Of a stretch of DNA of 64,000 nucleotides, positions 1,659-58,216 are shown piece after piece. The notes under the pieces were generated by a model that searched no databases, was not told the DNA's origin, and saw only the letters and a list, made by a program, of their open reading frames with translations. Source of the stretch: an uncultured Gammaproteobacteria bacterium (GTDB taxonomy: Bacteria > Patescibacteriota > Microgenomatia > Levybacterales > UBA12049); contig CAZOHC010000001.1 of the NCBI GenBank assembly GCA_964579845.1, positions 27,196 to 91,195 of the forward strand. The letters run 5' to 3'. Every line of letters starts with the position of its first letter. The stretch's first letter is position 1. The position numbers and the translations under genes are program-made.

Positions 1659-3464
1659 TTAGGCTTCGTTCTCCATCTCAACGTGCACGACGTGGTGCTC
1701 TTCCAAACGGAAGAGTCCTTCGTCAAGTCGCTTCTGATCAAGGAAATGGGAGATAAAGCCGACTGAGCGTGAGAGAACGAATAACGCATTAAAGAACTCA
1801 ACCTCTGTCAGGTGCCGCAACTCATCATCAGAGTAGCCCTCTTTTTCTGAGAGGATATCAAGTAAAACAGCAGCGATGGTACCGTCAACGTTAAGGATTA
1901 AGTTGCCTTTTTTAGCAACGGTAACCTGTTCAACTGCAAGCGCAAATGATGTAAAGCGTTTGCTTTCCAGTCCGTCACCGTATGACAGTAGAGCTTTTAC
2001 GCGAGGATCAGGCATATCAACGCGATATTTCCTATGACCGATTCCGAGAATGTATTTTTTCTTGGCTGCAAACTCTTCAACAAAGTGATCCGCATCTACC
2101 TTACCGGTTACGCCTGTTATCCAGTTTGCTGCAGCTTCATTGATCGCACCGCCGAACCGGGGACCGACGGTCAAAAGTCCTGCCGACAAAGATGAGACGA
2201 GATCTCTTCCTGCACGTGCGGTGACGATGGTATTTACCGCACCTGAGACATGCGGTCCGTGATCAACAAGCAACCTGAGAATAAAATCAATAAAGGACAC
2301 AAGCTCTTTCGATGAGGCTTTTCTACCTAAAAAGAGATTTGCGACAATCTCAGCAAATGAGTGATCATGTGAAAATGCGAGCAGGTCTTCATCAAGCACT
2401 TTCACCACACCGTTATCATCTGTTGAGATACTGCTTGTGATGAGTGCTTTTTGTCTGTTTTTTGCTTCCTCCATATGCGTAGTATAGTCGATATACTCAT
2501 CGTTGTGTACTGCATCTGATTGCTCGATCTTTTTTACAAAATCAGAAAACGAAGATTCTGCCTGAACGCCAACATCGCGTAAGGCCTTCCGTTTCGCTTC
2601 TGCTGTTTCCGTTCTGGTTTTGGCCATTGCTTTCGCATGACCGAATTGGGGAGCACTCGGAAACAGGGTTGAGACCGTACCGCCGATATAGCAGATAACA
2701 GGTTTTGTGACTTTTCCGTCGCTAATAAGGTCGACAAGCTTATACTCGTCCGTCCCTCCGAGTTCACCGTAATACACGATTACCTCAGTTGCGGGGTCCT
2801 GCTCAGCTGCGAGAAAGGCATCCTCCGGGGTAAATATCGGAAATCGGTCGCCGCCGAATGAGAGTGCGAACGAGATTCGTTTCCCCGATCTGACAACAAT
2901 ATTAATCAGTTCGTTTGTCATACCGCCTGAGGCAGAAAACACCGCAATGCTTCCTTTTGTGAATAATTGTGCTTCAGCAAGTTGCCTGATATCCACACCG
3001 CCGATGGCACCGAGTTTGAGAACCTGCGGAATCAGTAATCCGACGCTGGCAGGACCGATGATACGTACATCTCGTTTTCCGGCATCTTCGTACAGGGCAA
3101 GCGCATGCCGTTCCGGCACATTTTCCGCAAAGACAGCACCTGCCCGTATGGAAGGGAAAGTACTCAACACTGAGCGTGTAGACGTGAGAACACGTCTTGC
3201 AGAACTGAGCTGTAAGAAAAAAGATACTTCCTGCCTCAGGCGCTGAGGAACTGCTTCCCCTGACTGGTAGACCGGGAGCAATATTTCTTTATTTCCGAAA
3301 AAATAACGCTCGAACCGCCGACCTGATGCGATAATACCAACCAGGCTCGGTGACTGTTTTCCGGCCAGGTAATCAAAATCCAGGATTGACTGGAGAATGC
3401 CTGGGTGGCTGCCGACGGCGATAATCTTCGGCTCAATTGATCGAAATGTTTGGATATCTATCAT
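1659..3464 (-). CDS. aclA: ATP-citrate lyase subunit A (CoA-binding/SCS-alpha-like domain plus citrate-synthase-like domain)
   Basis: 601 aa; phosphohistidine loop SAPQFGHAKAMAKTRTETAEAK; block-wise collinear with the human ACLY C-terminal half (HRKYRVDMPDPRVKAL / NLILNVDGTIAAVLLDIL / FVLSRSVGFISHFLDQKRL). Confidence 0.8.
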   Translation of the reverse strand: MIDIQTFRSIEPKIIAVGSHPGILQSILDFDYLAGKQSPSLVGIIASGRRFERYFFGNKEILLPVYQSGEAVPQRLRQEVSFFLQLSSARRVLTSTRSVLSTFPSIRAGAVFAENVPERHALALYEDAGKRDVRIIGPASVGLLIPQVLKLGAIGGVDIRQLAEAQLFTKGSIAVFSASGGMTNELINIVVRSGKRISFALSFGGDRFPIFTPEDAFLAAEQDPATEVIVYYGELGGTDEYKLVDLISDGKVTKPVICYIGGTVSTLFPSAPQFGHAKAMAKTRTETAEAKRKALRDVGVQAESSFSDFVKKIEQSDAVHNDEYIDYTTHMEEAKNRQKALITSSISTDDNGVVKVLDEDLLAFSHDHSFAEIVANLFLGRKASSKELVSFIDFILRLLVDHGPHVSGAVNTIVTARAGRDLVSSLSAGLLTVGPRFGGAINEAAANWITGVTGKVDADHFVEEFAAKKKYILGIGHRKYRVDMPDPRVKALLSYGDGLESKRFTSFALAVEQVTVAKKGNLILNVDGTIAAVLLDILSEKEGYSDDELRHLTEVEFFNALFVLSRSVGFISHFLDQKRLDEGLFRLEEHHVVHVEMENEA

Positions 3465-3479
3465 AGTCTTTCACGTGTC

Positions 3480-4676
3480 TTAGACCTGTCCGGTCGCATT
3501 ATGGACGATCTCGGTTAACAAGACGTCAGGACCGACAACACGTCCGAGCAACGCTTCCTGTGTCAAGAATTCACTCATCTGTTTAAGCCCTTCTGCCTGG
3601 TTCGGCCCGCCCCGCCTGACATACACTCGAACTTGCTGTTCGCGGAGCTCATGTGTATAGTCTGTCAGCGCTCGGATCACACCTCGAAACGTTGCTTTGA
3701 TGTCAGTAAAATTTGCCACCCCACCACCGATAATCAGTACTTTTTTCTCCGCTTTCGAACGAAGCAACAGTTTGAGTACCTGTGTTGTATAGATATACGT
3801 CTCCTCTTCATTCGGATTGCCGCTGTATTCTCCGTAATTCGCGAGTTCTTCGCCCAACCCCATGTTCGCAACCTCATCGGCCAGAACCAAACTCGCACCC
3901 CCACCTGAGAGAAGCATAAAAATACTGCCGTTTGGGTTTAAAACAGTAAGTGTAAAGGCTGCCTGAGAATTTTCTTTGAGCTCCTGAACAACACCTTCTT
4001 CCGCAGTTTGCGCTCCATGTTCGCCATAGGTAAAGTCATGAGCACCCCAACTCTTACCTGCGAAAAAGTCTGCGACACTGTCTACTTCAACAGCAAGATC
4101 AATAACATGCAGTTCATTTCCCTGAAGCACGAGCGGATTAATTTCTAAGAATGAGAAGTAATGTTCATCAAAAACAGCGATGAACGTTTCGATAATATCA
4201 GGAGATAGCCCGATACTTGCTGCAATCTGTGCTTTTCCTTCTGTCCGTTGCTCCTGCTGGTAGGGGAGAAGCACCTGCTGCACAGTATCCTCGTACTCCT
4301 CGATGTCAATCCCACCCCGAGGCGATATCGAAACCACGTAGCCGTCCCGCTGCCGTTCCATGGCAAAATATTTTTCATGCTCACCATCATACCGTGCCAT
4401 CGGTTCAATAAGAAACTGCGAAAAACCCTTGGCAGTGATATCACTCAGTACTGCAGGAATTTCTTGAGGATTAAGGTTCAGACCGATAAGTCCACGCTTC
4501 ATACGTTTTTTCACACCTTGGTCGACTTTTACCACATATTTTTGTTCAGGAGAAAGACTCTTCAGTTGCGGCTCGATATCCCGATCTGAGAAGACCTGGA
4601 TGCCGAAATAAGGACGGTCTAGCCGAGCAAAGAGGAGGGTTTTTGCCCGAAATTCAGTGATTCGCTGTCTGGCCAT
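3480..4676 (-). CDS. aclB: ATP-citrate lyase subunit B (ATP-grasp, SCS-beta-like)
   Basis: Collinear with the ACLY N-terminus: LIEPM, TVLNPNGSIFMLLSGGGASLVLADEVANMGLGEELANYGEYSGNPNEEETY, LIIGGGVANFTDIKATFRGVIRAL. Start chosen at internal ATG (MARQRITEFRAK, 4676..4674); the track ORF extends to 4736. Confidence 0.8.
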   Translation of the reverse strand: MARQRITEFRAKTLLFARLDRPYFGIQVFSDRDIEPQLKSLSPEQKYVVKVDQGVKKRMKRGLIGLNLNPQEIPAVLSDITAKGFSQFLIEPMARYDGEHEKYFAMERQRDGYVVSISPRGGIDIEEYEDTVQQVLLPYQQEQRTEGKAQIAASIGLSPDIIETFIAVFDEHYFSFLEINPLVLQGNELHVIDLAVEVDSVADFFAGKSWGAHDFTYGEHGAQTAEEGVVQELKENSQAAFTLTVLNPNGSIFMLLSGGGASLVLADEVANMGLGEELANYGEYSGNPNEEETYIYTTQVLKLLLRSKAEKKVLIIGGGVANFTDIKATFRGVIRALTDYTHELREQQVRVYVRRGGPNQAEGLKQMSEFLTQEALLGRVVGPDVLLTEIVHNATGQV

Positions 4677-4766
4677 AAATTCTGTGCTTATTGTACCATA
4701 GAAGCATGAAAAGAGCGCGAATAGAGGAAGTATCACGCATCGGATACCAGGGTGCGAGAAGAAGTC

Positions 4767-6875: not shown

Positions 6876-6992
6876 AAGTAAGAAAATCAAAAGCCAAAAT
6901 GCAAAAATCAAAATTATTTTTTGACTTTCACCTTTTGACTTGAGCATAAAGTATACCATATTTTTTTTCTTCCTGCTATACCTGTTTTTGCT

Positions 6993-7021
6993 TTGACAAA
7001 CCTTTAAAAAGCACCTAGACT
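6993..7021 (+). promoter_or_regulatory. candidate sigma70 promoter for the pilN operon (TTGACA-17-TAGACT)
   Basis: TTGACA at 6993-6998, 17-nt spacer, TAGACT at 7016-7021, about 70 nt upstream of the pilN ATG in the fusA/pilN divergent intergenic region. Confidence 0.3.
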
Positions 7022-7091
7022 GGAAGAAGACCGCTCAGACGTCGTGAGCTTTATTTCTCGTGGAGAAAAGCCTGTCCTGAGGGGAGCAAAG

Positions 7092-7646
7092 ATGGCAAAA
7101 GTAACCTCCATCAATTTAATTAGATCAGAGCAAACACACCACATTGACACCATTTTAAAATGGGCGCTGACAACAGGGAGGTTCCTGATTATTCTCACTG
7201 AAACAATAGCGCTTTCGGCATTTGTGTATCGTTTTAGCCTGGATCGTGAAATTATCGACTTAACGGATGAGATAAAAAATAATCAGGCAGTCGTCTCACT
7301 GTATACAGATGAACCTCGCTACCGAAACCTCCAGGAGCGGCTTACCTTTGTTGAGAGTATCAGACCGACACAGTCAGAAAAAACGATCCTCATGCATGAG
7401 GTTGTCAGCCTGTCAGACTGAAAAGTCACCTTTCAGCAGATAGCAATCGGATCAAGCGAAGTAAACCTTGCAATTACTACATCCTCAACAGGGGCACTCT
7501 CGTCATTTTTAGCCGGGATTAAGACCGTCCCCACGATTCAAGAAGTACGGGTGAACAATGTAGAAAACAGAGCGGGAAGTGGTGAAATCGTCGTCAACAT
7601 AACAGCAAGCCTGAAGACACAAGGAAAGGAACAGTCCGATGAATAA
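7092..7646 (+). CDS. pilN: PilN-like type IV pilus assembly protein interrupted by an in-frame TGA at 7419-7421; the frame continues 75 codons to TAA at 7644
   Basis: SD GAGGGGAG then ATG at 7092; N-terminal INLI(R) motif plus a single TM helix. After the TGA the same frame encodes VTFQQIAIGSSEVNLAITTSSTGALSSFLAGIKTVPTIQEVRVNNVENRAGSGEIVVNITASLKTQGKEQSDE and ends in an ATGA-type 8-nt overlap with the pilO start. Total length about 184 aa, as for PilN. Confidence 0.55.
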
Positions 7647-8274
7647 CGAACAAAGAACTTCACTGCATAATCTGCCGAAGAAGACATATTTGAACTACAT
7701 CAAGTCGTTTCCTGTTACGCAATCTGAGCAGGTCAGAAGTTATACAACGATAATTCTCACACTTTTGGCAATTATCGGATTCAGTGTATTTGCCATCAGC
7801 CCAACCATTAATACGATTCTCGAGCTCAGGAGGCAACTTGAAGATAACAGGTACGTAAATACCGCGCTCGAAGAAAAAATCACGGCTCTCGGATCACTTC
7901 AGGCTGAGTATACTGGTATGGGAAGCACGCTCGAGGTTATTGAGACAGCGCTCCCGACGAAACCGAATGTTCCGGACCTGTTTGCACGGCTGCAGACGCT
8001 TGCTACGAGGTATCAGGTAACGCTCATTACACTGGACTCTGAAGAAGTCGAACTCACCAAAACCGCACAGGGGAAAGAACCTTCATCGTTCGTTTTTTTA
8101 ATTACAGCTCAGGGTGCGTATGATAATATTTTTTCCTTTTCCGAAGCGTTAACCGATTTCAATCGCGTTGTCAGTATTGATGGAATTACGTTTACGAGAA
8201 AAGTAGGAGAAAACCAGACCGTCGAAGCGATCATCAGGGCACGAGCATACTTTCATCCGGAGGTAAAAGAATGA
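7639..8274 (+). CDS. pilO: PilO-like type IV pilus assembly protein
   Basis: 211 aa; N-terminal TM, coiled-coil (ILELRRQLEDNRYVNTALEEKITALGSLQAEY), C-terminal PilO-like fold; translationally coupled to the flanking genes (stop TGA overlapping the next ATG). Confidence 0.65.
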   Translation: MNNEQRTSLHNLPKKTYLNYIKSFPVTQSEQVRSYTTIILTLLAIIGFSVFAISPTINTILELRRQLEDNRYVNTALEEKITALGSLQAEYTGMGSTLEVIETALPTKPNVPDLFARLQTLATRYQVTLITLDSEEVELTKTAQGKEPSSFVFLITAQGAYDNIFSFSEALTDFNRVVSIDGITFTRKVGENQTVEAIIRARAYFHPEVKE

Positions 8275-8585
8275 AACTAAAAGGGGAAAATATTACCAAT
8301 TTACTACTTTCTGTGACTTTTGTGACGCTAGCGTATATTGGCTTTACGTTTTACCATACATCAGTCACCTCGACACTCGATGATGATCTTACCTTGCAGA
8401 TTCAGCCGATTTCGGCTAGCTTTAATAAAACGGCTATCGAACATCTTATCGGAAGAACTTCGGTACCACCAACCTATGAACTGGCAGGAGAAGCAGAAGT
8501 CACTGAAGAGGCAGCCTCAGCCGCTGGGTCACTGCAACCGGTAGAGGATACATCAGCTGAGGAAACAGAGGAAAGCGCGTTATGA
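8271..8585 (+). CDS. small membrane-anchored protein with an acidic tail (pilus accessory, PilP-like?)
   Basis: 104 aa; one N-terminal TM helix, Ser/Thr and acidic C-terminus; ATGA overlaps on both sides indicate it sits in the pilN-pilO operon. Confidence 0.45.
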   Translation: MKLKGENITNLLLSVTFVTLAYIGFTFYHTSVTSTLDDDLTLQIQPISASFNKTAIEHLIGRTSVPPTYELAGEAEVTEEAASAAGSLQPVEDTSAEETEESAL

Positions 8586-9973
8586 TAAAAAAACTATTAA
8601 GCATACGAATTCCTTCCGTCATCGGAATTCTTCTCCTGCTTATCGGAGTCGGCGTTACATCGTATCTTGTGGATCAGGGAATAATCTTTGAAGGAAGAGC
8701 AGCTCCTGAAAAAGAACCTGAGAATATCGCAATCACGAATGTCAGTCCGACGGGCTTTACCGTTCTCTATACGACCACGACAGCAGTACCGGGGACGATT
8801 TCATATGGAACGGAAAAAGAAGGAACAAATGTCGCGGTGGATGATCGGGATCGTGAAACAGGCAGATCAACTCCCTCAAAAATTCACCATATAACAGTAA
8901 GCAACCTGAACCCTTCAACGACGTACTATTTTTCTATTCTCTCAGGGGATGCAGTCTTTCTCAATGAAGACGAGCCGTATGAGGTGATGACAGCACCGAT
9001 GCTCCCCACACAGCCTGAAGAAACTCCGCCGATTACCGGATCAATTACGGTTCCTGAGGATGTCGAGGAGAAGCAGTCGATTGTCCTCATGACGTCTGAT
9101 GACTCGCAGATGGTCTCAGCGCTGGTCGATGAAGATGGATCCTATGTCATTCCGACCACAGGTATTCGCTCGGAAGACCTCTCAGCATACGCTGTCTTAC
9201 GTGACGACACCTTGTTTGATATGGTGGTATTGAATGCTTCCCGTACATCAACCGCTTCCGTACTGTACGAGAATACGAGCCCGATACCGCTCATTCTCTT
9301 GGGACAAGCATATGACTTCACCATCAGTAATGACCCACTCGATGACGGAACGATCGCATCAGAATCTGCAAATGTCAGCTTACCGGAAGTTACAACGAAC
9401 TCTTCAGACGAACCTTCCATTCAGATCGTTTCCCCTGAAGAAGAAGAAACATTTTCCGACCAACAGCCGGTTTTCCGCGGGAAGGCACTGCCCGGGAGTG
9501 AGATCGAGATACTCATCCATTCCGAGGGTCCTATCTCAGCAACTATTGAAGCAGACAGTGATGGGAGCTGGGAATTCCGACCTGAAACACCGTTAGCTCC
9601 CGGTAAGCATACGATTACGATTAAAACCCGTGACATTACCGGAACGCTTCGTGAATTCAGCAGGTCTTTTACGGTCTTCGCTCAAGGAAGTCAATTCGTC
9701 GAACCATCCGTCTCGCCGACCAGAACGCCCACGCCAACGCTGAGCCTAATGTCACCAACGCCGACCGCGAGTCCGACTGCTGTTCCGACACCGACTGAGT
9801 TCCCGACGCCGACACCGACCATAGTGTCCGAGGTGACTGCTCAACCATCCCCAACCAGGCCTCCGATGGAAGCTCCTGGAGCACGAGAAGTTGTTATCGG
9901 CGGTGTCATCGGTGTAACAACTATCCTGGCAGGGTTCCTGCTATTCTTCCTAACGAAAGGTTCGACGCTATGA
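8582..9973 (+). CDS. cell-surface protein with FN3/purple-acid-phosphatase-N-like and bacterial Ig-like domains, a Pro/Thr-rich stalk and a C-terminal TM anchor
   Basis: 463 aa; N-terminal TM; ITNVSPTGFTVLYTTTTAVPGTISYGTEKEG...STTYYFSI (FN3-like); PVFRGKALPGSEIEILIHSEGP...GKHTITIKTRD (Ig-like); PTRTPTPTLSLMSPTPTASPTAVPTPTEFPTPTPT linker; C-terminal hydrophobic helix. Confidence 0.7.
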   Translation: MIKKLLSIRIPSVIGILLLLIGVGVTSYLVDQGIIFEGRAAPEKEPENIAITNVSPTGFTVLYTTTTAVPGTISYGTEKEGTNVAVDDRDRETGRSTPSKIHHITVSNLNPSTTYYFSILSGDAVFLNEDEPYEVMTAPMLPTQPEETPPITGSITVPEDVEEKQSIVLMTSDDSQMVSALVDEDGSYVIPTTGIRSEDLSAYAVLRDDTLFDMVVLNASRTSTASVLYENTSPIPLILLGQAYDFTISNDPLDDGTIASESANVSLPEVTTNSSDEPSIQIVSPEEEETFSDQQPVFRGKALPGSEIEILIHSEGPISATIEADSDGSWEFRPETPLAPGKHTITIKTRDITGTLREFSRSFTVFAQGSQFVEPSVSPTRTPTPTLSLMSPTPTASPTAVPTPTEFPTPTPTIVSEVTAQPSPTRPPMEAPGAREVVIGGVIGVTTILAGFLLFFLTKGSTL

Positions 9974-11268
9974 GGATAGGTATTATCGGGGCAGGCTTCA
10001 CGGGACTGAGTGCCGGATACAATCTCGCAAAAAAAGGCCATGAAGTAACAATTATTGAGAAAGATAGCCACCCGGGAGGGCTAGCAATAGGATACAAGGA
10101 GCCTGCATGGGATTGGTCACTTGAGAAACACTATCATCATTGGTTCACAAATGATGACTTCGTTCTCCGCCTCGCAAAAGAAATAGGTCATGAGGTCATT
10201 ACCAAACGACCGAAAACGTCTGTATATCTGCGGGGCAAGTTGCATCAACTCGACTCTCCTGCACATGTCCTACGTTTTTCTGAACTCTCAATCATACAAA
10301 GGTTTCGGATGGCAACAGTTCTGGGACTGCTCAGGTACAACCCTTTTTGGAAACCACTTGAAAAAATAAAAGCAGAACCGTTCCTAAAAAAAACCATGGG
10401 AGAAAAAGCGTACACCCTGTTGTGGGAGCCACAATTTCAGAATAAGTTCGGCGATTTTGTCGGTGAGGTCTCACTTGCCTGGTTCTGGGCTCGTATTACT
10501 AAACGGACGCCGTCACTCGCATATCCGAAAAAAGGATTTCTCCCGTTTGCAGAACACCTCGTCAAATCCATCAGAGAAAAAAACGGAACAGTACTCTTTT
10601 CAACCGAGGTGACTACGCTGCGTGATGAGGAGAAAACAACGATTACGACAACAAACGAAAAAGGGGAGAAGCAAACACACATCTTTGATAAAGTCATCGT
10701 AACGCTCCCGTCATTCCTTTTCGTCAAAACAACGCCGCAACTGCCTGACAGCTATGTGCGCAGTCTGAATAAACTAAAAGGACTCGGTGCAACCAACCTT
10801 GTTCTGCGGCTTAAGAAACCGTTTTTTGCCGATAACACCTACTGGTTATGTGTTTGCGAGAAAAAAAGCCCTGTCATGGCAATTGTTGAACATACGAACT
10901 TTATGGAGAAAAAACACTATAACAACGAACACCTCCTCTATCTCGGCAACTACGTCGCACCTGATCATGCATATTTCTCTATGAATGAACACGAGATGCT
11001 ACAACACTTTGATCCCTTCCTGAAAAAAATAAACCCTGAATATCAAGACAACCTTATCGGGATGAAGCTCTTTAAAGCTCCCTTTGCCCAGCCGATTATT
11101 CCGGTAAACTATTCAAAAATCCTCCCATCAATGGTTACGCCTCTTCAAAACGTGATTCTCGCGAATATCGAACAGGTCTATCCCTGGGACCGGGGAACAA
11201 ACTACGCTGTCGAACTGGGTGAGATCGCCGCAGGGCTCGTTACACAAGCACATCATGAAGCTGAGTAA
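9970..11268 (+). CDS. NAD(P)/FAD-dependent oxidoreductase, UDP-galactopyranose-mutase/amine-oxidase-like Rossmann flavoprotein
   Basis: 432 aa; N-terminal GIIGAGFTGLSAGYNL...IIEKDSHPGG dinucleotide fold; HYHHWFTNDDFV resembles the Glf (UGM) motif GAHIFHTNDKYIW. Confidence 0.7.
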   Translation: MRIGIIGAGFTGLSAGYNLAKKGHEVTIIEKDSHPGGLAIGYKEPAWDWSLEKHYHHWFTNDDFVLRLAKEIGHEVITKRPKTSVYLRGKLHQLDSPAHVLRFSELSIIQRFRMATVLGLLRYNPFWKPLEKIKAEPFLKKTMGEKAYTLLWEPQFQNKFGDFVGEVSLAWFWARITKRTPSLAYPKKGFLPFAEHLVKSIREKNGTVLFSTEVTTLRDEEKTTITTTNEKGEKQTHIFDKVIVTLPSFLFVKTTPQLPDSYVRSLNKLKGLGATNLVLRLKKPFFADNTYWLCVCEKKSPVMAIVEHTNFMEKKHYNNEHLLYLGNYVAPDHAYFSMNEHEMLQHFDPFLKKINPEYQDNLIGMKLFKAPFAQPIIPVNYSKILPSMVTPLQNVILANIEQVYPWDRGTNYAVELGEIAAGLVTQAHHEAE

Positions 11269-30626: not shown

Positions 30627-30646
30627 ATCATTAAGTATATATCGAA

Positions 30647-30673
30647 TTAGCAGTCATGTCAATACTCTGCTAA
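30647..30673 (+). promoter_or_regulatory. CIRCE-like inverted repeat (TTAGCAGTC-N9-CTCTGCTAA) 21-47 nt upstream of the clpB start
   Basis: Perfect 7-bp arms TTAGCAG/CTGCTAA; left half matches the CIRCE consensus TTAGCACTC 8/9, right half 6/9. Confidence 0.3.
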
Positions 30674-30936
30674 CATCTCTTGCCGGAAGCGTACTCGGGG
30701 ACGGGGCATCAAGAAGTTTCAAAAAAGCAGTATGCATATGCCGTCAACGTAGAACGTCTCAATATAGTGATCCCTGTTGGAGATTCGTTCTCAAAAGTTA
30801 TCCACAACGCCTTTCGTGTTTTTTTCTGTGAAAAGTTCTTCGTGAAAAGACTATATCATACTATATCTATATCAAACTATATCACCCTATAGGATATATA
30901 CCACTCCTCTCTTCCCTGTCTTCCTCCATCCGTACG

Positions 30937-30978
30937 AAAAATCCCGCTTGCTGCTTATCTGCATTGCGGGATTTTTCT
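30937..30978. terminator. bidirectional intrinsic terminator (11-bp stem AAAAATCCCGC / GCGGGATTTTT)
   Basis: Perfect 11-bp inverted repeat flanked by an A-run and a T-run, so a T-tract follows the stem on either strand. Confidence 0.5.
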
Positions 30979-31253
30979 GTCTGTAATGATTATTCATCTC
31001 GTAAGTTCTATCGCGAAACGATTCCGCTTCAGAAAGAAATAATCATTACCTGATATTATTTTACCGGTGACGAAATCACCACAAAAAATGATGCTACTAC
31101 TGTCTCAAAATATTGTCTTATTTTCCTCATCTACTCCTCCTTTCTGTAAGAATCGTGATTAATTAAGCTCAATATAAGCTCAATAATAGAGAAACGACAT
31201 AAGAAATAATTGAAAATTTTGTAAGAAATGACTAAGAAGAAGATGTTTGAAGA

Positions 31254-33193: not shown

Positions 33194-33208
33194 CAAGGAG
33201 GCATGGTA

Positions 33209-33583
33209 TGGAACGAAACATGTTCGAGAGAGCAGACGGATATGATCCGGAGCTCCATGAGCTCCGGGTACCTATCATCGTACTCATGAAGCCCACCTCA
33301 AGCATCCTATCGATCGATGGATTCGTCGCCACCTGAATATCGACACCGGATACTGCAGGAGAAACGGTTGACCTCACTATTAACGTCCAACTGCCTGACA
33401 GTATCTTTTTCGACGCTTGGTCATTCAGACCACCGATGCCACCGACCACATGGGAATACGAAGGACCGATACCATACAGGCATGGTGGAAACTATAACGC
33501 TCCTTTTCATCAGACCCTCCTGGGGGTCTACGCACAATCAGGGACACCGCTTATGTACACGCTTCACCTTTGGGAGCGGTAAT
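33209..33583 (+). CDS. small ORF with a perfect SD (AAGGAGG-6-ATG) interrupted by an in-frame TGA at 33335-33337; the frame stays open another 81 codons to TAA at 33581
   Basis: MERNMFERADGYDPELHELRVPIIVLMKPTSSILSIDGFVAT-TGA-ISTPDTAGETVDLTINVQLPDSIFFDAWSFRPPMPPTTWEYEGPIPYRHGGNYNAPFHQTLLGVYAQSGTPLMYTLHLWER; no homolog recognised; contains a perfect 9-bp-arm palindrome at 33248-33268. Confidence 0.3.
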
Positions 33584-40010: not shown

Positions 40011-40087
40011 TGTACCAGGGGTGGGGCACGATCCCACGACCTCAGCGTTATGAATGCTGTGCTCTAACCAGCTGAGCTACCCTGGCT
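40011..40087 (-). tRNA. tRNA with CAU anticodon (Met, or Ile2/lysidine type); non-canonical details (G1.U72, A31.C39, T-loop ATCGTGC)
   Basis: Reverse complement GCCAGGGTAGCTCAGCTGGTTAGAGCACAGCATTCATAACGCTGAGGTCGTGGGATCGTGCCCCACCCCTGGTA folds as a cloverleaf: canonical D-arm, anticodon loop TTCATAA, 5-nt variable loop. Confidence 0.6.
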
Positions 40088-40147
40088 TACCATTGACTCA
40101 AGTGAGTTTGAAATCCCGCTTTTAGCTTCCAAAGTATACCAAATTGT

Positions 40148-40176
40148 TTGACCGTGAAGCAAATAACCTGTATAAT
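40148..40176 (+). promoter_or_regulatory. strong sigma70-type promoter TTGACC-17-TATAAT driving the tRNA-like sRNA
   Basis: TTGACC at 40148-40153, exact 17-nt spacer, TATAAT at 40171-40176; predicted TSS about 40183-40186. Confidence 0.55.
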
Positions 40177-40187
40177 CTCCTTTACGC

Positions 40188-40253
40188 GCGGGGTAGTGTA
40201 AGGCGCACGCGAGGCTCATAATCTTGCAGTCTGGTTTCGATACCAGCCCCGCA
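40188..40253 (+). ncRNA. 66-nt tRNA-like small RNA (7-bp acceptor-like stem, anticodon-like loop CUCAUAA, UUCGAU T-loop-like hairpin; compacted D/T arms)
   Basis: GCGGGGTAGTGTAAGGCGCACGCGAGGCTCATAATCTTGCAGTCTGGTTTCGATACCAGCCCCGCA; 5' GCGGGGU pairs with 3' GCCCCGC; flanked by its own promoter and terminator; about 7 nt too short for a canonical tRNA. Confidence 0.45.
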
Positions 40254-40263
40254 ACACAGAGGA

Positions 40264-41241: not shown

Positions 41242-42102
41242 ATGGACGCTGTAAAAGTGCGCGAAGCACATCAAAAATTTACTGACTTTTTAAAAGGAAA
41301 GAAGCACTCTAATGCTACTATTTTAGCATACGGGAAAGATATCGATCAGCTCGCCTCTTTCCTCGAAGAGTTGGACAAACACCATATCCACGAAGTAGAA
41401 AAAGGTGATATTGAGGCATTTTTAGCAAAAATGTCTGACAAAGGCTACACCCCGAAATCAATTTCCCGCAAACTCAACTCAACCAGGACATTTTACCGAT
41501 TCCTTAAAGTCAATGAAATCATAACAGACGATCCATCACTGCTTGTTTCACACCCACGCTATGAGCTTGCTCCTCCCCGTATTCTGAAACCGACTGAGTA
41601 TCGGGCACTTCGCGATGCTGCTCGTAATGATGCCCGCATGTACGCAATTATCGAGATTCTGTTGCAGACAGGCATCCGAATCGGAGAGCTTGCCGCACTC
41701 AGAATGGAAGATATTCAAGGTGACACGCTCCGTATCAGGCCGATGGAAAAACATGAAGAGCGGGTTGTTCCTCTTAATCGGCCGGCGAAAGATGCGTTAA
41801 ATCGCTACCTGGCACAACGCCCGCAGGTGGAAGATACACATGTTTTTATCACTAAATCAGGCAAACCGTTCCTCGTCCGAAATATCAGAACCGCGATCGA
41901 GCGATATTTCCGTCTCGCCGGTATCGAAGGTGCAAAAGTAAATGACCTTCGCCACACTTTCGTTGCACACCACATCAAACACGGTGTTTCACTGGTCCTT
42001 CTCTCAAAAGTACTGGGACATAAGAGAATCTCAACGACAGAACGATACCTTGAATACGTCAAAGAGCGCGCGAAAGACACAACACAGCTTTCAGAATTAT
42101 AA
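41242..42102 (+). CDS. xerC: tyrosine site-specific recombinase XerC/XerD family
   Basis: 286 aa; N-terminal core-binding (SAM-like) domain; catalytic-domain motifs LLQTGIRIGEL, HDLRHTFV, LGHKRISTTERYL. Confidence 0.85.
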   Translation: MDAVKVREAHQKFTDFLKGKKHSNATILAYGKDIDQLASFLEELDKHHIHEVEKGDIEAFLAKMSDKGYTPKSISRKLNSTRTFYRFLKVNEIITDDPSLLVSHPRYELAPPRILKPTEYRALRDAARNDARMYAIIEILLQTGIRIGELAALRMEDIQGDTLRIRPMEKHEERVVPLNRPAKDALNRYLAQRPQVEDTHVFITKSGKPFLVRNIRTAIERYFRLAGIEGAKVNDLRHTFVAHHIKHGVSLVLLSKVLGHKRISTTERYLEYVKERAKDTTQLSEL

Positions 42103-43210: not shown

Positions 43211-43360
43211 AATGATGAGATTATACCATACAAACCAACAGGAGAACTACTACAGGCTTGGAGGTGGGAGTACTTGGGATCCCTGGCCGCACTCGGCGAC
43301 GACGAAAGCACTGCAGACGGGGAACCAAGGACCACTTCGTTACCTGCCTTGCTTTACTTG

Positions 43361-43432
43361 TGCGTCCGCTTGGGATCGAACCAAGGACCACTACTTTATA
43401 AGAATAGCGCTCTACCACTGAGCTACGGACGC
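43361..43432 (-). tRNA. tRNA-Ile with UAU anticodon
   Basis: Reverse complement GCGTCCGTAGCTCAGTGGTAGAGCGCTATTCTTATAAAGTAGTGGTCCTTGGTTCGATCCCAAGCGGACGCA: perfect 7-bp acceptor, canonical D and T arms (TTCGATC), anticodon loop CTTATAA. Confidence 0.7.
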
Positions 43433-43515: not shown

Positions 43516-45882
43516 TTATAATCGGGATCGCTGAGCAATCTCTGCTTCAACTGTCTGGACAGAGCGACCGTATTTGAGTCGTGAAAGCTCTTTTATAAGC
43601 TCAGCAACCCTCGGATTCATGAGGGCTTTTTCTTTTGAGATATCTTTGGTCGTATCAAGTGAGAATGGCGGCACAGGTTCACCGTTGACAAGCGTCCGCA
43701 TGTAGCAGTTAAAGCGATCGATATTAATCAAATCAGCTTCACCGAATGTCGGCTGGAACTCATGCTGCAGATAATTAGCATCAGTAACACCAACTCTGAA
43801 AGAAGCAATCGTACCGACATTACCGAAAATAGCATTCTTCACTTCCTCTTCCATCTGTCCGACAAACTGGTTCGCAACGATCAGGCTCAAACGATATTTC
43901 CTCGCTTCTGAGAGAATTTGTGCAAAGTCAGGCGTTGCGAAGTTTTGGAACTCGTCAACATACAGGAAAAAATCCCGTCGTTGATCCTGCGGCATATCCT
44001 GTCTGCTCATCGCTGAGATTAAGATCTTCGGAACCAGAATTAATCCCAAAAAACTCGAATTTTCCTCACCGATTTTACCCTTGGAAAGGTTTACCAGCAG
44101 AATTTTCCCGGTATCCATTACCTCACGGAAGTTAAACGCATTATCAGATTGCCCGATAATATTTCTGATCATTTTATTGGTCACAAACCGACCGAATTTG
44201 GAGACGATATAGTCAAGCGTCTCTGATTTATGGAAGTCAGACGTATTTGCGATCTGATCAGTCCAGTACCGCCTGATAACCGGGTCCTCAACTTTCGGCA
44301 ACAACTCCTGCACAAAACTCTGATCCGTAAGCGCCCGGACTACCTCCATAAAGGTTGCTCCCGGCTCATACATACAGGTCAACATCGCATTTCTGATTGC
44401 ATGCTCAAACCGAGGCCCGATAATTCCTGTCTTGTTCGGGTCAAAGAGCTTGTACATAAGGCCGATGACTGAGGAGACCATCAGATGCTTCTGCTGCTCG
44501 GTTTTCCCTTCAAGTAAATTAAATCCCATGGGACGCTCCGTATCCCCCGGATCAAACAAGATAACGTCTTCTGCGCGGTGTGGCGGCACCATCTGTAGGA
44601 TATCTTCGATCAAGTCCCCGTGCGGATCGACAACAGCCAATCCTTCGCCGTTGTTAATATCCTGCATGATCATCTGCTTTAAAAACTCTGACTTACCGGT
44701 ACCGGTTTTTCCGATGATATAGGTATGACGCATTCTGTCTTCCCGGCCGACATACACAGGCTTGGAGATGCCACGAAACGTACTCTTTCCCAGATACAGT
44801 CCTTCGGTCGGAATATTAGCAGGAGCAGGCGCACGCTTCGAGTTGACCCAGTGGATACCCGGTGTTGTGACTGATTTATTCGGAAAGTGGAAAAAGGTTG
44901 CGAGTTCTTCCGTATTCAGAATTGAGGTGTGCCCCCAGAGCGGAAAGTACCGATAAATAAAATCCTGCATGAAAAGCCCTTTCATGCGAATCTTCGATTT
45001 CGTGAACGAATTCTGGCCGCTGTACTGTTCCAACGAATGAACGATATTATCAAGGTGTGCACTTGCTGCTTCTTTGGTGCTTGAGGAGACGACGACCCGT
45101 ACTGTGGTCAAAAACCCCGGCTTACCCACTTTTGTCTCAATCCCCTCCAGCTCTTTCGAGTCAGCTGAATATTTGGCGGTTTCCGGGTTTGCTTCATTTT
45201 TTTTGGTTTTGGCGATATAGTCTTTCCCGGCTTTCTTCCAGTCAGAACCGGCAGGACTGATCATCAGTTGGATAGCAGCGCCTTCTCCCGGTCCCATTTT
45301 GGCAAGAATTGAGGTGAGTGAGGACAGCGGATCAACCGGCAGATCTTTAAAGACTTTGAGCGGTTTGTAATCAGCGTCTTTTAAGCGCAGACTCGCAAAA
45401 GCAACCTTCCCATCCTCTGAAAAGATGTTATACTCGCCGCCTACTAACGCATCTGAACGCTGTTTTGCTGCAGGATCGGTTATCTCGACAACTTCAGCCT
45501 CAGGATAGGCACCGTTTATCTGTTTTTCGACAAAGTCACGCAGTTTTTTCGGGACATGGATATAGAATCTGATATCGCCGGGCTGTCCGACCATCTCAAA
45601 GGTGAGGTGAGGTGCCCGCTTCATCTGATACCACTTCGGCTGCTTTCCGATCGATGCGAGCGAGGAAAATAACTGTTCTGCAGCATCTATCTTTACTTCA
45701 TTATCACGAGGAAGGGCAACCTGCAGTAACGATGATTCCAGTGAGTCCTGTTCTCTTTTTTTATTTCGAAGCCACAGCCGAAGCGCTAAGAAGCCGACAA
45801 ATCCCAGTCCGGCAAATACTCCGATCGCCAGCAGACTTATGATGAGGGTGAGCATTAATTGATTGATTGTATCTAGGTCCAT
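43516..45882 (-). CDS. membrane-anchored FtsK/HerA-superfamily ATPase with a TraD/VirD4 (type IV coupling protein)-like NBD and TraM-recognition-like C-terminal region
   Basis: 788 aa; N-terminal TM helix, about 350-aa unassigned domain, Walker A IIGKTGTGKSEF, Walker B LYVDEFQNF, C-terminal block RKYRLSLIVANQFVGQ...IASFRVG. Confidence 0.7.
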   Translation of the reverse strand: MDLDTINQLMLTLIISLLAIGVFAGLGFVGFLALRLWLRNKKREQDSLESSLLQVALPRDNEVKIDAAEQLFSSLASIGKQPKWYQMKRAPHLTFEMVGQPGDIRFYIHVPKKLRDFVEKQINGAYPEAEVVEITDPAAKQRSDALVGGEYNIFSEDGKVAFASLRLKDADYKPLKVFKDLPVDPLSSLTSILAKMGPGEGAAIQLMISPAGSDWKKAGKDYIAKTKKNEANPETAKYSADSKELEGIETKVGKPGFLTTVRVVVSSSTKEAASAHLDNIVHSLEQYSGQNSFTKSKIRMKGLFMQDFIYRYFPLWGHTSILNTEELATFFHFPNKSVTTPGIHWVNSKRAPAPANIPTEGLYLGKSTFRGISKPVYVGREDRMRHTYIIGKTGTGKSEFLKQMIMQDINNGEGLAVVDPHGDLIEDILQMVPPHRAEDVILFDPGDTERPMGFNLLEGKTEQQKHLMVSSVIGLMYKLFDPNKTGIIGPRFEHAIRNAMLTCMYEPGATFMEVVRALTDQSFVQELLPKVEDPVIRRYWTDQIANTSDFHKSETLDYIVSKFGRFVTNKMIRNIIGQSDNAFNFREVMDTGKILLVNLSKGKIGEENSSFLGLILVPKILISAMSRQDMPQDQRRDFFLYVDEFQNFATPDFAQILSEARKYRLSLIVANQFVGQMEEEVKNAIFGNVGTIASFRVGVTDANYLQHEFQPTFGEADLINIDRFNCYMRTLVNGEPVPPFSLDTTKDISKEKALMNPRVAELIKELSRLKYGRSVQTVEAEIAQRSRL

Positions 45883-49275: not shown

Positions 49276-49419
49276 AAAAAAACTCCTCACCCGAGGAGTA
49301 TAGTCATCGTACGAACGATGCTTCCTGCTCGGGATAGAAACTACTGACTCGTTTTCTGACTGTCACAGTTACGGCATAGCCACGGACTTGCACCGTGCTT
49401 TCCGAATCAGTAGGATAGA
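49276..49419 (-). ncRNA. cobalamin-riboswitch-like leader 1 (GGUGCAAGUCC...GCCGUAACUGUGA core; hairpin+U7 platform that sequesters the SD)
   Basis: Minus-strand RNA ...GGAAAGCACGGUGCAAGUCCGUGGCUAUGCCGUAACUGUGACAGUCAGAAAACGAG...CUCCUCGGGUGAGGAGUUUUUUUAUG fills the 145-nt nrdJ/DUF4430 intergenic region; resembles the RF00174 core (GGUGnnAAUCC, CCGCnACUGU). Confidence 0.5.
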
Positions 49420-53110: not shown

Positions 53111-53764
53111 TTACTCAGTGTTTGCAAGCGAATGATCAGGGAGCAGTGCCATTCTTTGGGCATTCATAATCGCTTCGACTGCGCGAAGTGTTTCATCAAG
53201 AGCATTGTCTTCGTTTTCAACGAGGTAATCACAGTCCCGATATTGCTTCATTTCCCAAACGACTAACGGTTCGTTCCACCTAATCTTGGCCTTTTCTTCA
53301 CCTTCTGATGCGTATACACGCCGCTTCATTTCAGTAATGTTGGGTGCGGAGATATAGACAAAGACAGATCTTGGCACCATTTCTTTTATTTTTGCTTTAA
53401 TATTCTTCACGCCCTTTGCCTCAATCCGCCAGACAACATCAACACCCTGTGCCAACGCATCGGTCAGAGTTTTTTTCTGCGTTCCGTAGAGCTCTCCTCG
53501 AAACTCTACCCATTCAAAAAATGCTTCCTCAGCGATTAAACGTTCAAACTCTTCTCTGGAGAGGAAGTGATACGCCTTGCCTTCTTCTTCCCCGTCGCGT
53601 GGTTTCCTGCTCGTTGTTGTCACGATCTTTAGTGCAGTCGGGTACTTTTTTAAGAAGGCTGCGATAACGGTATCTTTTCCAGCACCACTCGGACCGGTCA
53701 AGACAAGCAAAACGCCTCGTTTCTTTTGGTCTGTCAGTTCTTCTTCAAGAGGTTTTACCATCAT
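53111..53764 (-). CDS. gmk: guanylate kinase
   Basis: LTGPSGAGKDT P-loop, TTTSRKPRDGEEEGKAYHF (GMP-binding), YISAP... Confidence 0.8.
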   Translation of the reverse strand: MMVKPLEEELTDQKKRGVLLVLTGPSGAGKDTVIAAFLKKYPTALKIVTTTSRKPRDGEEEGKAYHFLSREEFERLIAEEAFFEWVEFRGELYGTQKKTLTDALAQGVDVVWRIEAKGVKNIKAKIKEMVPRSVFVYISAPNITEMKRRVYASEGEEKAKIRWNEPLVVWEMKQYRDCDYLVENEDNALDETLRAVEAIMNAQRMALLPDHSLANTE

Positions 53765-55882: not shown

Positions 55883-55978
55883 ACGGTCGTCTTCTTATTA
55901 TACGCAAAACCCGATTCCCTGTCCCCTGGAAACTGAGAGTTTTTGATAGGAAGAAATGAAACATGGTATTATTACCAC

Positions 55979-58138
55979 ATGAAAGTGAAAGTTATCAAGA
56001 AGAAAAAGCTGCCCCGGAAACGGTTTCTTTTCCTGTGGCTCCTCCTTCTCTTACCGATTCTGATCGCAGTCGGTGTTTTTTACTATTATATTCTGAAAGA
56101 CCTTCCCTCACCGACGCATCTGAGCACGAATTCGCTCGGCCAATCAACCCAGATCTATGATCGTAACGGTGTCAGGCTGTATACAATCTATGATAATAAA
56201 AATCAGACCTTCGTTCCGTTAAAGACGATTCCCAGAAACCTTCAGCTCGCAACCTTGGTGGCTGAGGATAAGGATTTTTATAAACACGGCGCGATTGACC
56301 TGCGGGGTGTCGCCAGGGCGTTCTACGCAACAATCTTCCAGAAAAACCTTCAGGGTGGGTCAACACTCACACAGCAGTTAGTAAAAAACAGCTTGCTGAC
56401 GCCGGAGCGCACTATTCAGCGTAAACTCAAAGAACTCATTCTCTCATTCGCAACTGAAGCGCTCTATTCTAAAGATGAGATTATCGAGATGTATCTGAAT
56501 CAGGTTCCTTACGGTGGGACAGCCTACGGTGTTCAAGCTGCGTCAAGAATGTATTTCGGAAAAGACGTGGATAAACTGACACTGGCAGAGAGTGCACTGT
56601 TAGCCGGATTTCCTGAATCACCTTCAACCTATGCACCGTTCGGATCACGCCCTGAACTCGGCAAGCAGCGACAAGAATATATCCTCAGGAGAATGCAGGA
56701 AGAAGGATTTATCACCGCGAAAGAACGTGAAGAAGCACTGAAGCAAAAAATAAGCTTCAGAAGCACGATCAGTGAGATCAAAGCACCGCATTTTGTGTTT
56801 TATGTACGGGATCTTTTAGTAAAAAAATACGGTGAACGAACGGTCAACGAAGGCGGGCTCCAGGTCAAAACCAGCCTGGATCTCTCAATGCAGGAATTTG
56901 CAGAACAAACCGTTGCCAGTGAAGTTGCGGAGTTAAAGCGATTTAACGGTAGTAACGGCGCAGCGCTGGTCACCAACCCCGGGACAGGAGAGGTACTGGC
57001 AATGGTTGGTTCCAGGAACTACTTTGACCAGGAAATTGACGGGAATGTGAATATTACCCTGTCACATCGACAACCAGGCTCTTCAATTAAGCCGATTAAC
57101 TATGCTGTAGGATTGATCAAGGGATATGCTGCTTCAACCCCTTTCATCGATAAAGCAAGTTGCTTTCCAGGAAGGCCGACGTACTGTCCGAAAAACTATG
57201 ACGGGAAATACCACGGTGTTGTTTCTTTCCGAAATGCACTCGGCAACTCACTGAATATCCCGGCCGTACAGATGCTGAAAGTAAACGGGCTGGATGCTAT
57301 GATTGCAACAGCCTCGGCGATGGGTATTACAACCTTTAAAGATCCGGAGCGCTATGGATTATCACTCACCTTAGGCGGTGGTGAGGTCACGATGACTGAT
57401 ATGGCAACTGCCTTCGGTGTCTTCGCAAACAGAGGCTATCGTATTGACCTGCATCCGATTTTAAAAGTCACTGATAAAACAGGAAAAGTGCTCGAAGAAT
57501 ATACCCCACCTGAAAGTCCTATTTTCGGAAAAAAAGTATTACCACCCGGCGTTGCGTTTATAATCTCAGACATTTTACAAGATAACGGAGCCAGAACAAT
57601 GGCGTTCGGGCCAAACTCCATGCTTCGCATTCCGGGACAGACAGTGTCAGTCAAAACAGGTACGACCAATGATTACCGGGATAACTGGACGATCGGCTAT
57701 ACCCCTTCCCTGCTCACAGCTGTTTGGGTAGGAAATAATGATAACACCCCGATGAGCGGCGTTGTCTCAGGTGTCACAGGAGCTGCTCCGATATGGAACA
57801 CACTGATGACGGAGTTTCTCAAAGATAAACCTGCCGAACCGTTAGCACAGCCTTCTGATGTTATTTCGCGAGCAGTCTGCACCAGTAGCGGGAGCATTCC
57901 TCCTGCTGAGGGATGTCAGACACGACGCGAGTATTTCCTCAAAGATTATCCTGTCAAGCAACCGATTACCAGGCGGGAAAAAGTGTTTATTGATAAAGAA
58001 ACCGGCGATATTGCACCGGCAGGTAAGACAGAAAATGTTGAAGAGCGGGAAGAGACGATTATTATCGACCCACTAGGAAACCGTTACTGTCTGACATGTC
58101 CGCACCCCTCCCCGAGTGAATCTCCTCAACCCGAATAG
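55979..58138 (+). CDS. class A penicillin-binding protein (bifunctional glycosyltransferase GT51 / transpeptidase), copy 1
   Basis: GT51 motifs EDKDFYKHGAIDL, GGSTLTQQL; TPase SSIKP, SLN, KTGT. Start at ATG 55979 (the track start is TTG 55943). Confidence 0.85.
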   Translation: MKVKVIKKKKLPRKRFLFLWLLLLLPILIAVGVFYYYILKDLPSPTHLSTNSLGQSTQIYDRNGVRLYTIYDNKNQTFVPLKTIPRNLQLATLVAEDKDFYKHGAIDLRGVARAFYATIFQKNLQGGSTLTQQLVKNSLLTPERTIQRKLKELILSFATEALYSKDEIIEMYLNQVPYGGTAYGVQAASRMYFGKDVDKLTLAESALLAGFPESPSTYAPFGSRPELGKQRQEYILRRMQEEGFITAKEREEALKQKISFRSTISEIKAPHFVFYVRDLLVKKYGERTVNEGGLQVKTSLDLSMQEFAEQTVASEVAELKRFNGSNGAALVTNPGTGEVLAMVGSRNYFDQEIDGNVNITLSHRQPGSSIKPINYAVGLIKGYAASTPFIDKASCFPGRPTYCPKNYDGKYHGVVSFRNALGNSLNIPAVQMLKVNGLDAMIATASAMGITTFKDPERYGLSLTLGGGEVTMTDMATAFGVFANRGYRIDLHPILKVTDKTGKVLEEYTPPESPIFGKKVLPPGVAFIISDILQDNGARTMAFGPNSMLRIPGQTVSVKTGTTNDYRDNWTIGYTPSLLTAVWVGNNDNTPMSGVVSGVTGAAPIWNTLMTEFLKDKPAEPLAQPSDVISRAVCTSSGSIPPAEGCQTRREYFLKDYPVKQPITRREKVFIDKETGDIAPAGKTENVEEREETIIIDPLGNRYCLTCPHPSPSESPQPE

Positions 58139-58216
58139 TCACTCATCCGGTTTTACTGCTTTTCAAGGCCAAACTGCTTTAGTATAATCGTCTGACCTCC
58201 TGCTCTCGTTCTTGCT

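Follow-up and report, generated by a model that had tools for sequence, protein, structure and literature searches.

An in-frame TGA in pilN of a Patescibacteria-type genome looks like an ordinary point mutation or base-call error at a conserved glycine codon

PilN is an inner-membrane component of the alignment complex of type IV pili, and GspL/EpsL/XcpY is its counterpart in type II secretion. In known type IV pilus systems the periplasmic domain of PilN pairs with PilO. The pilN gene considered here lies in a 64-kb stretch of DNA from an uncultured Levybacteria-like bacterium, hereafter the window, and encodes, if an internal TGA is read through, a protein that resembles PilN (PF05137) and GspL/EpsL/XcpY in having an I-N-L motif, one membrane helix, a stalk and a C-terminal beta-beta-alpha-beta-beta domain. 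The likeness extends to gene arrangement, as pilN stands directly upstream of pilO and the stop of the one overlaps the start of the other. The window copy differs from the described systems in that it is interrupted by TGA at codon 110, belongs to a divergent family and has no pilM upstream.

The interruption itself also has described parallels. As in pseudogenes that arise by nonsense mutation, the stop is one base away from the ancestral codon, orthologs elsewhere are intact and so are the neighbouring genes; unlike such pseudogenes, the window pilN lacks secondary decay in the form of frameshifts, further stops or faster amino-acid change, and the interruption is therefore either very young or an error. 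Programmed UGA recoding, whether as selenocysteine or as read-through, likewise features an in-frame UGA followed by conserved coding sequence, but the window has no downstream stem-loop, the homologs have no Cys or Sec, and the stop occurs in none of the 161 orthologous loci. A third parallel is reassignment of the codon: UGA encodes Gly in Gracilibacteria and Absconditabacteria, and Trp in other bacterial lineages (PMC8629427). The window shares with genetic code 25, in which UGA is Gly, an in-frame UGA at a conserved Gly in an organism of the same radiation (PMC8629427); it departs from that code in that UGA ends 17 of 60 genes, does not otherwise occur within genes, and stands at protein ends where relatives have TAA.

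On the plus strand, the uninterrupted reading of pilN runs from ATG 7092-7094 to TAA 7644-7646, a total of 184 codons that includes the TGA at codon 110 (7419-7421). By translation, codons 1-109 (7092-7418) specify a conserved cytoplasmic SINL motif, the membrane helix and a long helical stalk, the TGA marks the junction of the stalk helix and the first beta strand, and codons 111-184 with the TAA (7422-7646) hold the whole periplasmic beta-beta-alpha-beta-beta (ferredoxin-like) domain. The original prediction, made from the letters and open reading frames of the window, was that this TGA interrupts pilN and that the frame continues beyond it with no alternative start or ribosome-binding site, and both statements hold. 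Past the TGA, 74 sense codons remain open in the pilN frame before the TAA. No canonical start codon occurs in frame before GTG 7551, from which only about 31 codons remain; the open reading frame list contains no ORF of at least 40 aa that starts in the pilN frame after the TGA, no SD-like motif precedes any position in 7422-7550, and a consensus scan of 7422-7638 returned no promoter-like site. If termination at 7419 is efficient, codons 111-184 would go untranslated. The translation of codons 1-109 is identical to the 109-aa NCBI call P0002 on the 108,154-bp NCBI contig.

Upstream of pilN, an SD-like AGGGGAG read from the sequence (7080-7086, plus strand) lies 5 nt ahead of the ATG, and a promoter-like TTGACA-17-TAGACT (10 of 12; 6993-7021, plus strand), found by consensus scan only, is a candidate operon promoter. 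The neighbour on that side is fusA, on the other strand. The mechanical EF-G ORF (minus strand) takes ATG 6959 and so acquires a hydrophobic extension of 27 aa (6879-6959); the start of the conserved protein is most likely ATG 6878 (MADTNNRTYP...), in which case the divergent intergenic region available to the pilN promoter would measure 213 nt.

Downstream, the end of the full-length pilN frame and the start of pilO share 8 nt, ATGAATAA. The junction had been described earlier as an ATGA-type overlap, a description that the 8-nt overlap and the position of the pilO ATG (7639-7641) correct. An SD-like AAGGAAAGGA is read from the sequence at 7621-7630 on the plus strand, 8 nt ahead of that ATG, and by this element of its own pilO can, on the evidence of the sequence, initiate without coupling to pilN. 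The pilO gene (7639-8274, plus strand, 211 aa) is intact: it matches Pfam PilO (PF04350) at E=2e-10, and its length and C-terminus are those of its relatives. It is followed on the same strand by a 104-aa ORF, the third gene of the operon (8271-8585), which has one N-terminal hydrophobic segment and syntenic counterparts of 110-123 aa in three loci from relatives (L001, L161 and L163), and by the fourth gene (8582-9973), which encodes a 463-aa surface protein with fn3/Big_13 (Pfam) and a C-terminal membrane anchor and has syntenic orthologs of 462-464 aa. Where the contigs are long enough, those three loci and the window share the gene order pilN, pilO, small ORF, surface protein, amine oxidase, two GT-C genes, epimerase, 186-aa ORF and DUF2298. 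In the syntenic operons pilN is intact, at 184-190 aa, and the lengths of the operon proteins other than PilN agree between the window and its relatives.

Comparison with relatives bears directly on whether the short form could be the normal one. From related Levybacteria/Microgenomates genomes and from metagenomes, 163 pilN loci were fetched, of which 161 are complete and two are cut by contig ends. They derive from Candidatus Levybacteria / Levyibacteriota, Microgenomates and unclassified Patescibacteria MAGs, and the closest relatives, 50-69% identical, are known from metagenome assemblies only. None of the 161 complete loci is interrupted, with lengths of about 175-200 aa. A database search returned 41 full-length homologs of 175-236 aa, and the sole short one was the genome's own 109-aa call P0002. 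It had been suggested that the 109-aa PilN might prove to be the conserved form; this is not so, as every relative is long. A stop found in no ortholog argues against a programmed event.

The residue that aligns with the TGA is Gly in 15 of the 16 closest homologs, where it sits in the motif A-Q/R-G, and in 16 of the 32 aligned full-length homologs; the residues found at this position are Gly or assorted polar ones, and never Cys. At the level of DNA the codon is GGA in L161 and L162, GGC in L001 and GGT in L163. The first pair read GGA AAA GTC where the window reads TGA AAA GTC, and a single G-to-T transversion would thus be enough to turn the Gly codon into the pilN TGA. An exact 33-base pattern around codon 110, with NNN at the codon itself, had no match in the genome contigs or the metagenome contigs searched. 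Exact-protein look-ups with PilO and with the 109-aa fragment likewise gave no contig, and the protein cluster led to the one NCBI contig of 108,154 bp and no other.

The identity of the protein rests on several features. With X placed at the stop, the product matches Pfam PilN (PF05137) over residues 100-165, a span that includes the TGA, at 14.7 bits (E=0.033), which is below the gathering cut-off of 22.8 bits. Of the aligned family members, 19 of 34 match Pfam PilN at E<=0.01 (best 6.8e-7), and the family is accordingly placed by sequence as a divergent PilN clade, membership resting on the motif, the domain and the pilO neighbour. A profile of the family matches Myxococcus PilN (PDB 3jc8, chain 3jc8_Na) at E=6e-4 across the stop position. 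In the family alignment the residues of the N-terminal I-N-L motif (I7, N8 and L9) are invariant, a hydrophobic stretch at residues ~24-46 constitutes a single membrane helix, and pilO (PF04350) directly adjoins pilN in the same order in L001, L161 and L163.

The position of the stop within the fold was read from an AlphaFold model (mean pLDDT 77.6) not of the window protein but of its closest homolog, P0001, which is 69% identical, of equal length and aligned without gaps. In this model helices occupy residues 11-72 and 74-108, a short loop at 109-112 holds the Gly, and a strand-strand-helix-strand-strand unit follows at 113-174 with pLDDT of about 85-88. Foldseek relates the modelled domain to 5hl8, 2w7v, 6ghu and 4bhq, which are periplasmic domains of GspL/EpsL/XcpY and of Thermus PilN, with TM scores of 0.54-0.78 on the target. 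The TGA is thus predicted to fall precisely at the boundary that precedes the globular periplasmic domain, and a 109-aa product would be without that whole domain.

In this genome TGA otherwise behaves as a stop. The 60 genes of the window end in TAA 32 times, TGA 17 times and TAG 11 times (TAA 31 in a slightly different gene list), the TGA count including the truncated pilN call and being 16 without it. The other window genes contain no in-frame TGA in 19,001 codons, as against 1,212 Gly codons, 412 of which are GGA. Moreover, pilO and the gene for the first GT-C glycosyltransferase end in TGA at homologous C-termini where L001 and L161 have TAA. Because TGA ends 17 of 60 genes, is absent in frame and matches relatives' TAA at C-termini, this is a standard-code genome in which TGA is a genuine stop, as had been proposed at the outset.

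The part of pilN beyond the TGA has kept the character of a gene. Its codon-usage log-odds is +0.21 in the pilN frame, where genes have a mean of 0.24 (sd 0.05), and negative in the other five frames. In comparison with L001, pN/pS is 0.31 for the post-TGA part and 0.17 for the N-terminal part, values that are uninformative on recent events since synonymous sites are saturated with respect to the closest relative (pS 0.78-0.79). The ratio of C-terminal to N-terminal identity between the window pilN and its close homologs is 0.642, a value near the centre of the range obtained when the homologs are compared with one another (0.556-0.706). The stretch had been called PilN-C-terminus-like from the letters alone, a view borne out by the uniformly long homologs and by codon usage that is gene-like in the pilN frame only. 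By these sequence measures the post-TGA part shows no extra divergence or decay, and it follows that the change is very recent, or an error, or that the codon is decoded.

We consider it probable, with good confidence, that the TGA is best explained by one recent G-to-T change of the Gly110 codon, be it a true nonsense mutation or a consensus error; that it is a true allele is roughly an even bet. The ancestral Gly110 codon would have been GGA, still present in one relative, and would have become TGA by the single G-to-T change. Read as a stop, the TGA would yield a 109-residue fragment that comprises the cytoplasmic PilM-binding motif, the membrane helix and the helical stalk, and that would lack the entire periplasmic domain, while pilO and the downstream genes would be left intact and with their own ribosome-binding sites. 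From the sequence we infer a loss of PilN function. Either the change would be very recent in the lineage, a strain-level loss-of-function allele caught by the assembly, or the consensus would carry a wrong base. Of the three options originally offered, mutation and error fit all of the evidence, namely the conserved Gly, a GGA one step away and the lack of decay; the third, recoding, is without positive support, considering the uninterrupted relatives (0/161), the missing hairpin, a window that lacks a tRNA(UCA), and TGA that terminates normally. The pilN TGA therefore looks like an ordinary point mutation or base-call error, and not like a special decoding mechanism.

Some observations run against the preferred explanation of a single recent G-to-T change. 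One is that the stop coincides precisely with a Gly codon, and in two other CPR lineages, Absconditabacteria and Gracilibacteria, UGA means Gly (PMC8629427). A second in-frame TGA interrupts a coding-looking frame (33334) 26 kb away, and two interrupted genes in about 61 are rather many for a streamlined genome. Among pairs of open segments in one frame, each of at least 60 codons and separated by one stop, the cases at 7419 and 33334 are the only ones left once adjacent real genes and alternative frames of real genes are set aside, and as interrupted frames the two exceed chance.

This second case is a candidate ORFan gene on the plus strand (33208-33582), which consists of ATG 33208, 42 codons, TGA 33334-33336, 81 codons and TAA 33580-33582. 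A strong ribosome-binding site, AAGGAGG, lies 6 nt ahead of the ATG, and both halves are coding-like in their shared frame only (codon-usage scores of +0.23 and +0.18). A word-indexed search found no homologs of the ORFan, and an exhaustive HMMER search with the 81-aa downstream part against 1.84 billion representatives returned only the genome's own 48-aa call, P0044, which is the sole part in the public annotation, comprising the last 48 aa. The original prediction of a second such case is thus right as to its existence, with its position amended from 33335 to 33334-33336, but it lends no support to a systematic effect: as the ORFan has no homologs, the second TGA corroborates nothing systematic. 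At both interruptions (7419 and 33334) the TGA is followed by A, which with n=2 is not significant. A stable RNA fold (33340-33413, z -2.7) begins a few bases after the ORFan TGA.

Other candidate interruptions were set aside. A third pair of same-frame segments separated by TGA (36540-35836 and 35763-35446, minus strand) represents two separate genes with a 72-nt spacer that is AT-rich and promoter-like. The 628 nt between a 715-aa ClpB-like gene and the next gene (30627-31253), unusually long for so gene-dense a window, were considered as a broken N-terminal domain upstream of clpB, a reading rejected on account of stops in all frames; the interval has no Rfam match, and the 715-aa gene has no match to Pfam Clp_N.

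Elsewhere, the window contains further features of note in their own right. Two adjacent ATP-citrate lyase-type genes (1659-4736, minus strand), one with ATP-grasp and citrate-binding domains and the other with CoA-ligase and a citrate-synthase C-terminal domain, are unexpected in a small-genome Patescibacteria-type organism. An AdoCbl-II (B12) riboswitch (49341-49413, minus strand; 51 bits against a cut-off of 36.5 bits) precedes a minus-strand run of DUF4430, DUF6580 and PduO-type cobalamin adenosyltransferase genes (49290-47814), and is located just downstream of nrdR and the gene for the ribonucleotide reductase large subunit, with barrel, N-terminal and TSCPD domains (52398-49420). At 40012-40255 and 43360-43432 there are two divergent tRNA genes with CAT anticodons, one of only 69 nt with a low score (41 bits), and a tRNA-Ile (TAT anticodon) beside genes for a TraG/VirD4-like coupling protein (43516-45882) and a tyrosine recombinase (41242-42102); this region may be the edge of a mobile element. 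A tandem pair of class A penicillin-binding protein genes, each with transglycosylase and transpeptidase, occupies 55943-60436 on the plus strand.

Within the preferred explanation, one sub-case is that the assembly and not the gene is at fault. Here the TGA would stem from a consensus or sequencing error or from a minority allele; GGA (Gly) would be the codon of the population at 7419-7421, and pilN would be intact, with no pseudogene. G-to-T is a typical artefact of oxidative damage, the window is a single base away from the GGA of L161 and L162, and neither the post-TGA part of pilN nor the remainder of the operon shows any damage. Substitution errors are, however, rare in short-read consensus assemblies, and the window shows no frameshift and no other broken gene, contrary to what an assembly with many errors throughout would lead one to see. 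The searched collections contain no independent assembly of the species: there was no exact DNA match, and the nearest protein is only 69% identical. We regard this sub-case as possible, but only tentatively so.

Tolerated leaky termination would leave the allele genuine and its effect softened: the UGA at codon 110 would be read through by a near-cognate tRNA at a low but useful rate, without any programme, so that a certain amount of full-length PilN is produced and the allele is retained. UGA is the leakiest of the bacterial stop codons, the downstream part of pilN is undecayed, and the second TGA, in a coding-looking ORF, is likewise followed by A. Genes that end in TGA are also enriched in back-up stops, with TAA or TAG within two codons of 8 of the 17 TGA stops, compared with any stop after 6 of 43 TAA or TAG ends (Fisher p=0.015). 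As a sign of leaky UGA this enrichment was set aside. Six of the eight cases are 4-nt start/stop overlaps of the ATGA type, which confound the comparison, and a control on gene starts gave a high background, 24-34% of them having TAA or TAG in the +1 frame; this leaves a small and doubtful signal. Examples of such back-up sites are found at 8272-8280, 8583-8588, 9971-9979 and 53755-53763. Low-level read-through would, moreover, yield little PilN, a protein that pairs with PilO, and near-cognate read-through inserts Trp, Cys or Arg and not the conserved Gly. The TGA has no stimulatory structure or special context, and a recent event explains the lack of decay equally well. Leaky termination is therefore judged unlikely.

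A more elaborate proposal is that UGA has a dual meaning, in that a suppressor resembling tRNA-Gly(UCA), with its gene elsewhere than in the window, decodes some UGAs as Gly while RF2 ends most genes. This would be an intermediate in the reassignment of UGA to Gly, which among CPR has so far been known only in Gracilibacteria and Absconditabacteria. The alignment of the TGA with the Gly of 15 of 16 close homologs would suit such a suppressor, as would the organism's membership of the radiation that gave rise to UGA=Gly and the fact that both interruptions in the window are TGA. The coincidence with Gly is weak, since GGA is one of about eight sense codons that are one step from TGA. Against a suppressor, no TGA occurs in the 19,001 in-frame codons of the other genes or inside pilN of the 161 relatives, and the TGA stops match the TAA stops of relatives. 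Such a tRNA is absent from the window, whose 64 kb contain only tRNA-Met, tRNA-Met and tRNA-Ile(TAT) and no tRNA with a UCA anticodon; neither RF2 nor sel genes are among its annotated proteins. A search of the full-text literature on in-frame UGA in Patescibacteria found no paper. A dedicated suppressor of this kind is highly improbable, and it is very unlikely that UGA, while the main stop, is usefully decoded as Gly at both pilN codon 110 and the 33334 ORFan by a tRNA(UCA)-type suppressor from outside the window.

The gene might instead be functionally split, with the stalk fragment and the periplasmic domain made as two polypeptides. The open frame alone recommends this arrangement, and it is barely credible: no in-frame ATG, GTG or TTG occurs before GTG 7551, which lies inside the domain, 7422-7550 offers neither an SD-like motif nor a promoter-like site, a separate domain would have no signal peptide or membrane anchor with which to reach the periplasm, and no relative among the 161 loci is split. 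Programmed read-through of the TGA is not supported, and its selenocysteine version, for which it can be said only that the UGA is in frame, has a negligible probability given that the 50-100 nt past the UGA contain no hairpin (the fold is no better than shuffled sequence, with z +0.47 for 101 nt and +1.25 for 52 nt), that homologs have Gly and never Cys at the position, and that there is no SECIS-type match in Rfam and no sel gene in the window.

As it stands, the finding matters little beyond a point of annotation, namely that the public 109-aa 'PilN' is a truncated call of a 184-codon gene. For the organism, the pilN TGA may point to a single strain in which the type IV pilus alignment complex has disappeared or is in the course of being lost. 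If reads were to confirm the TGA and the genome proved to have a UGA-decoding tRNA or many further in-frame TGAs at Gly positions, it would signify a dual-meaning UGA in a new CPR lineage.
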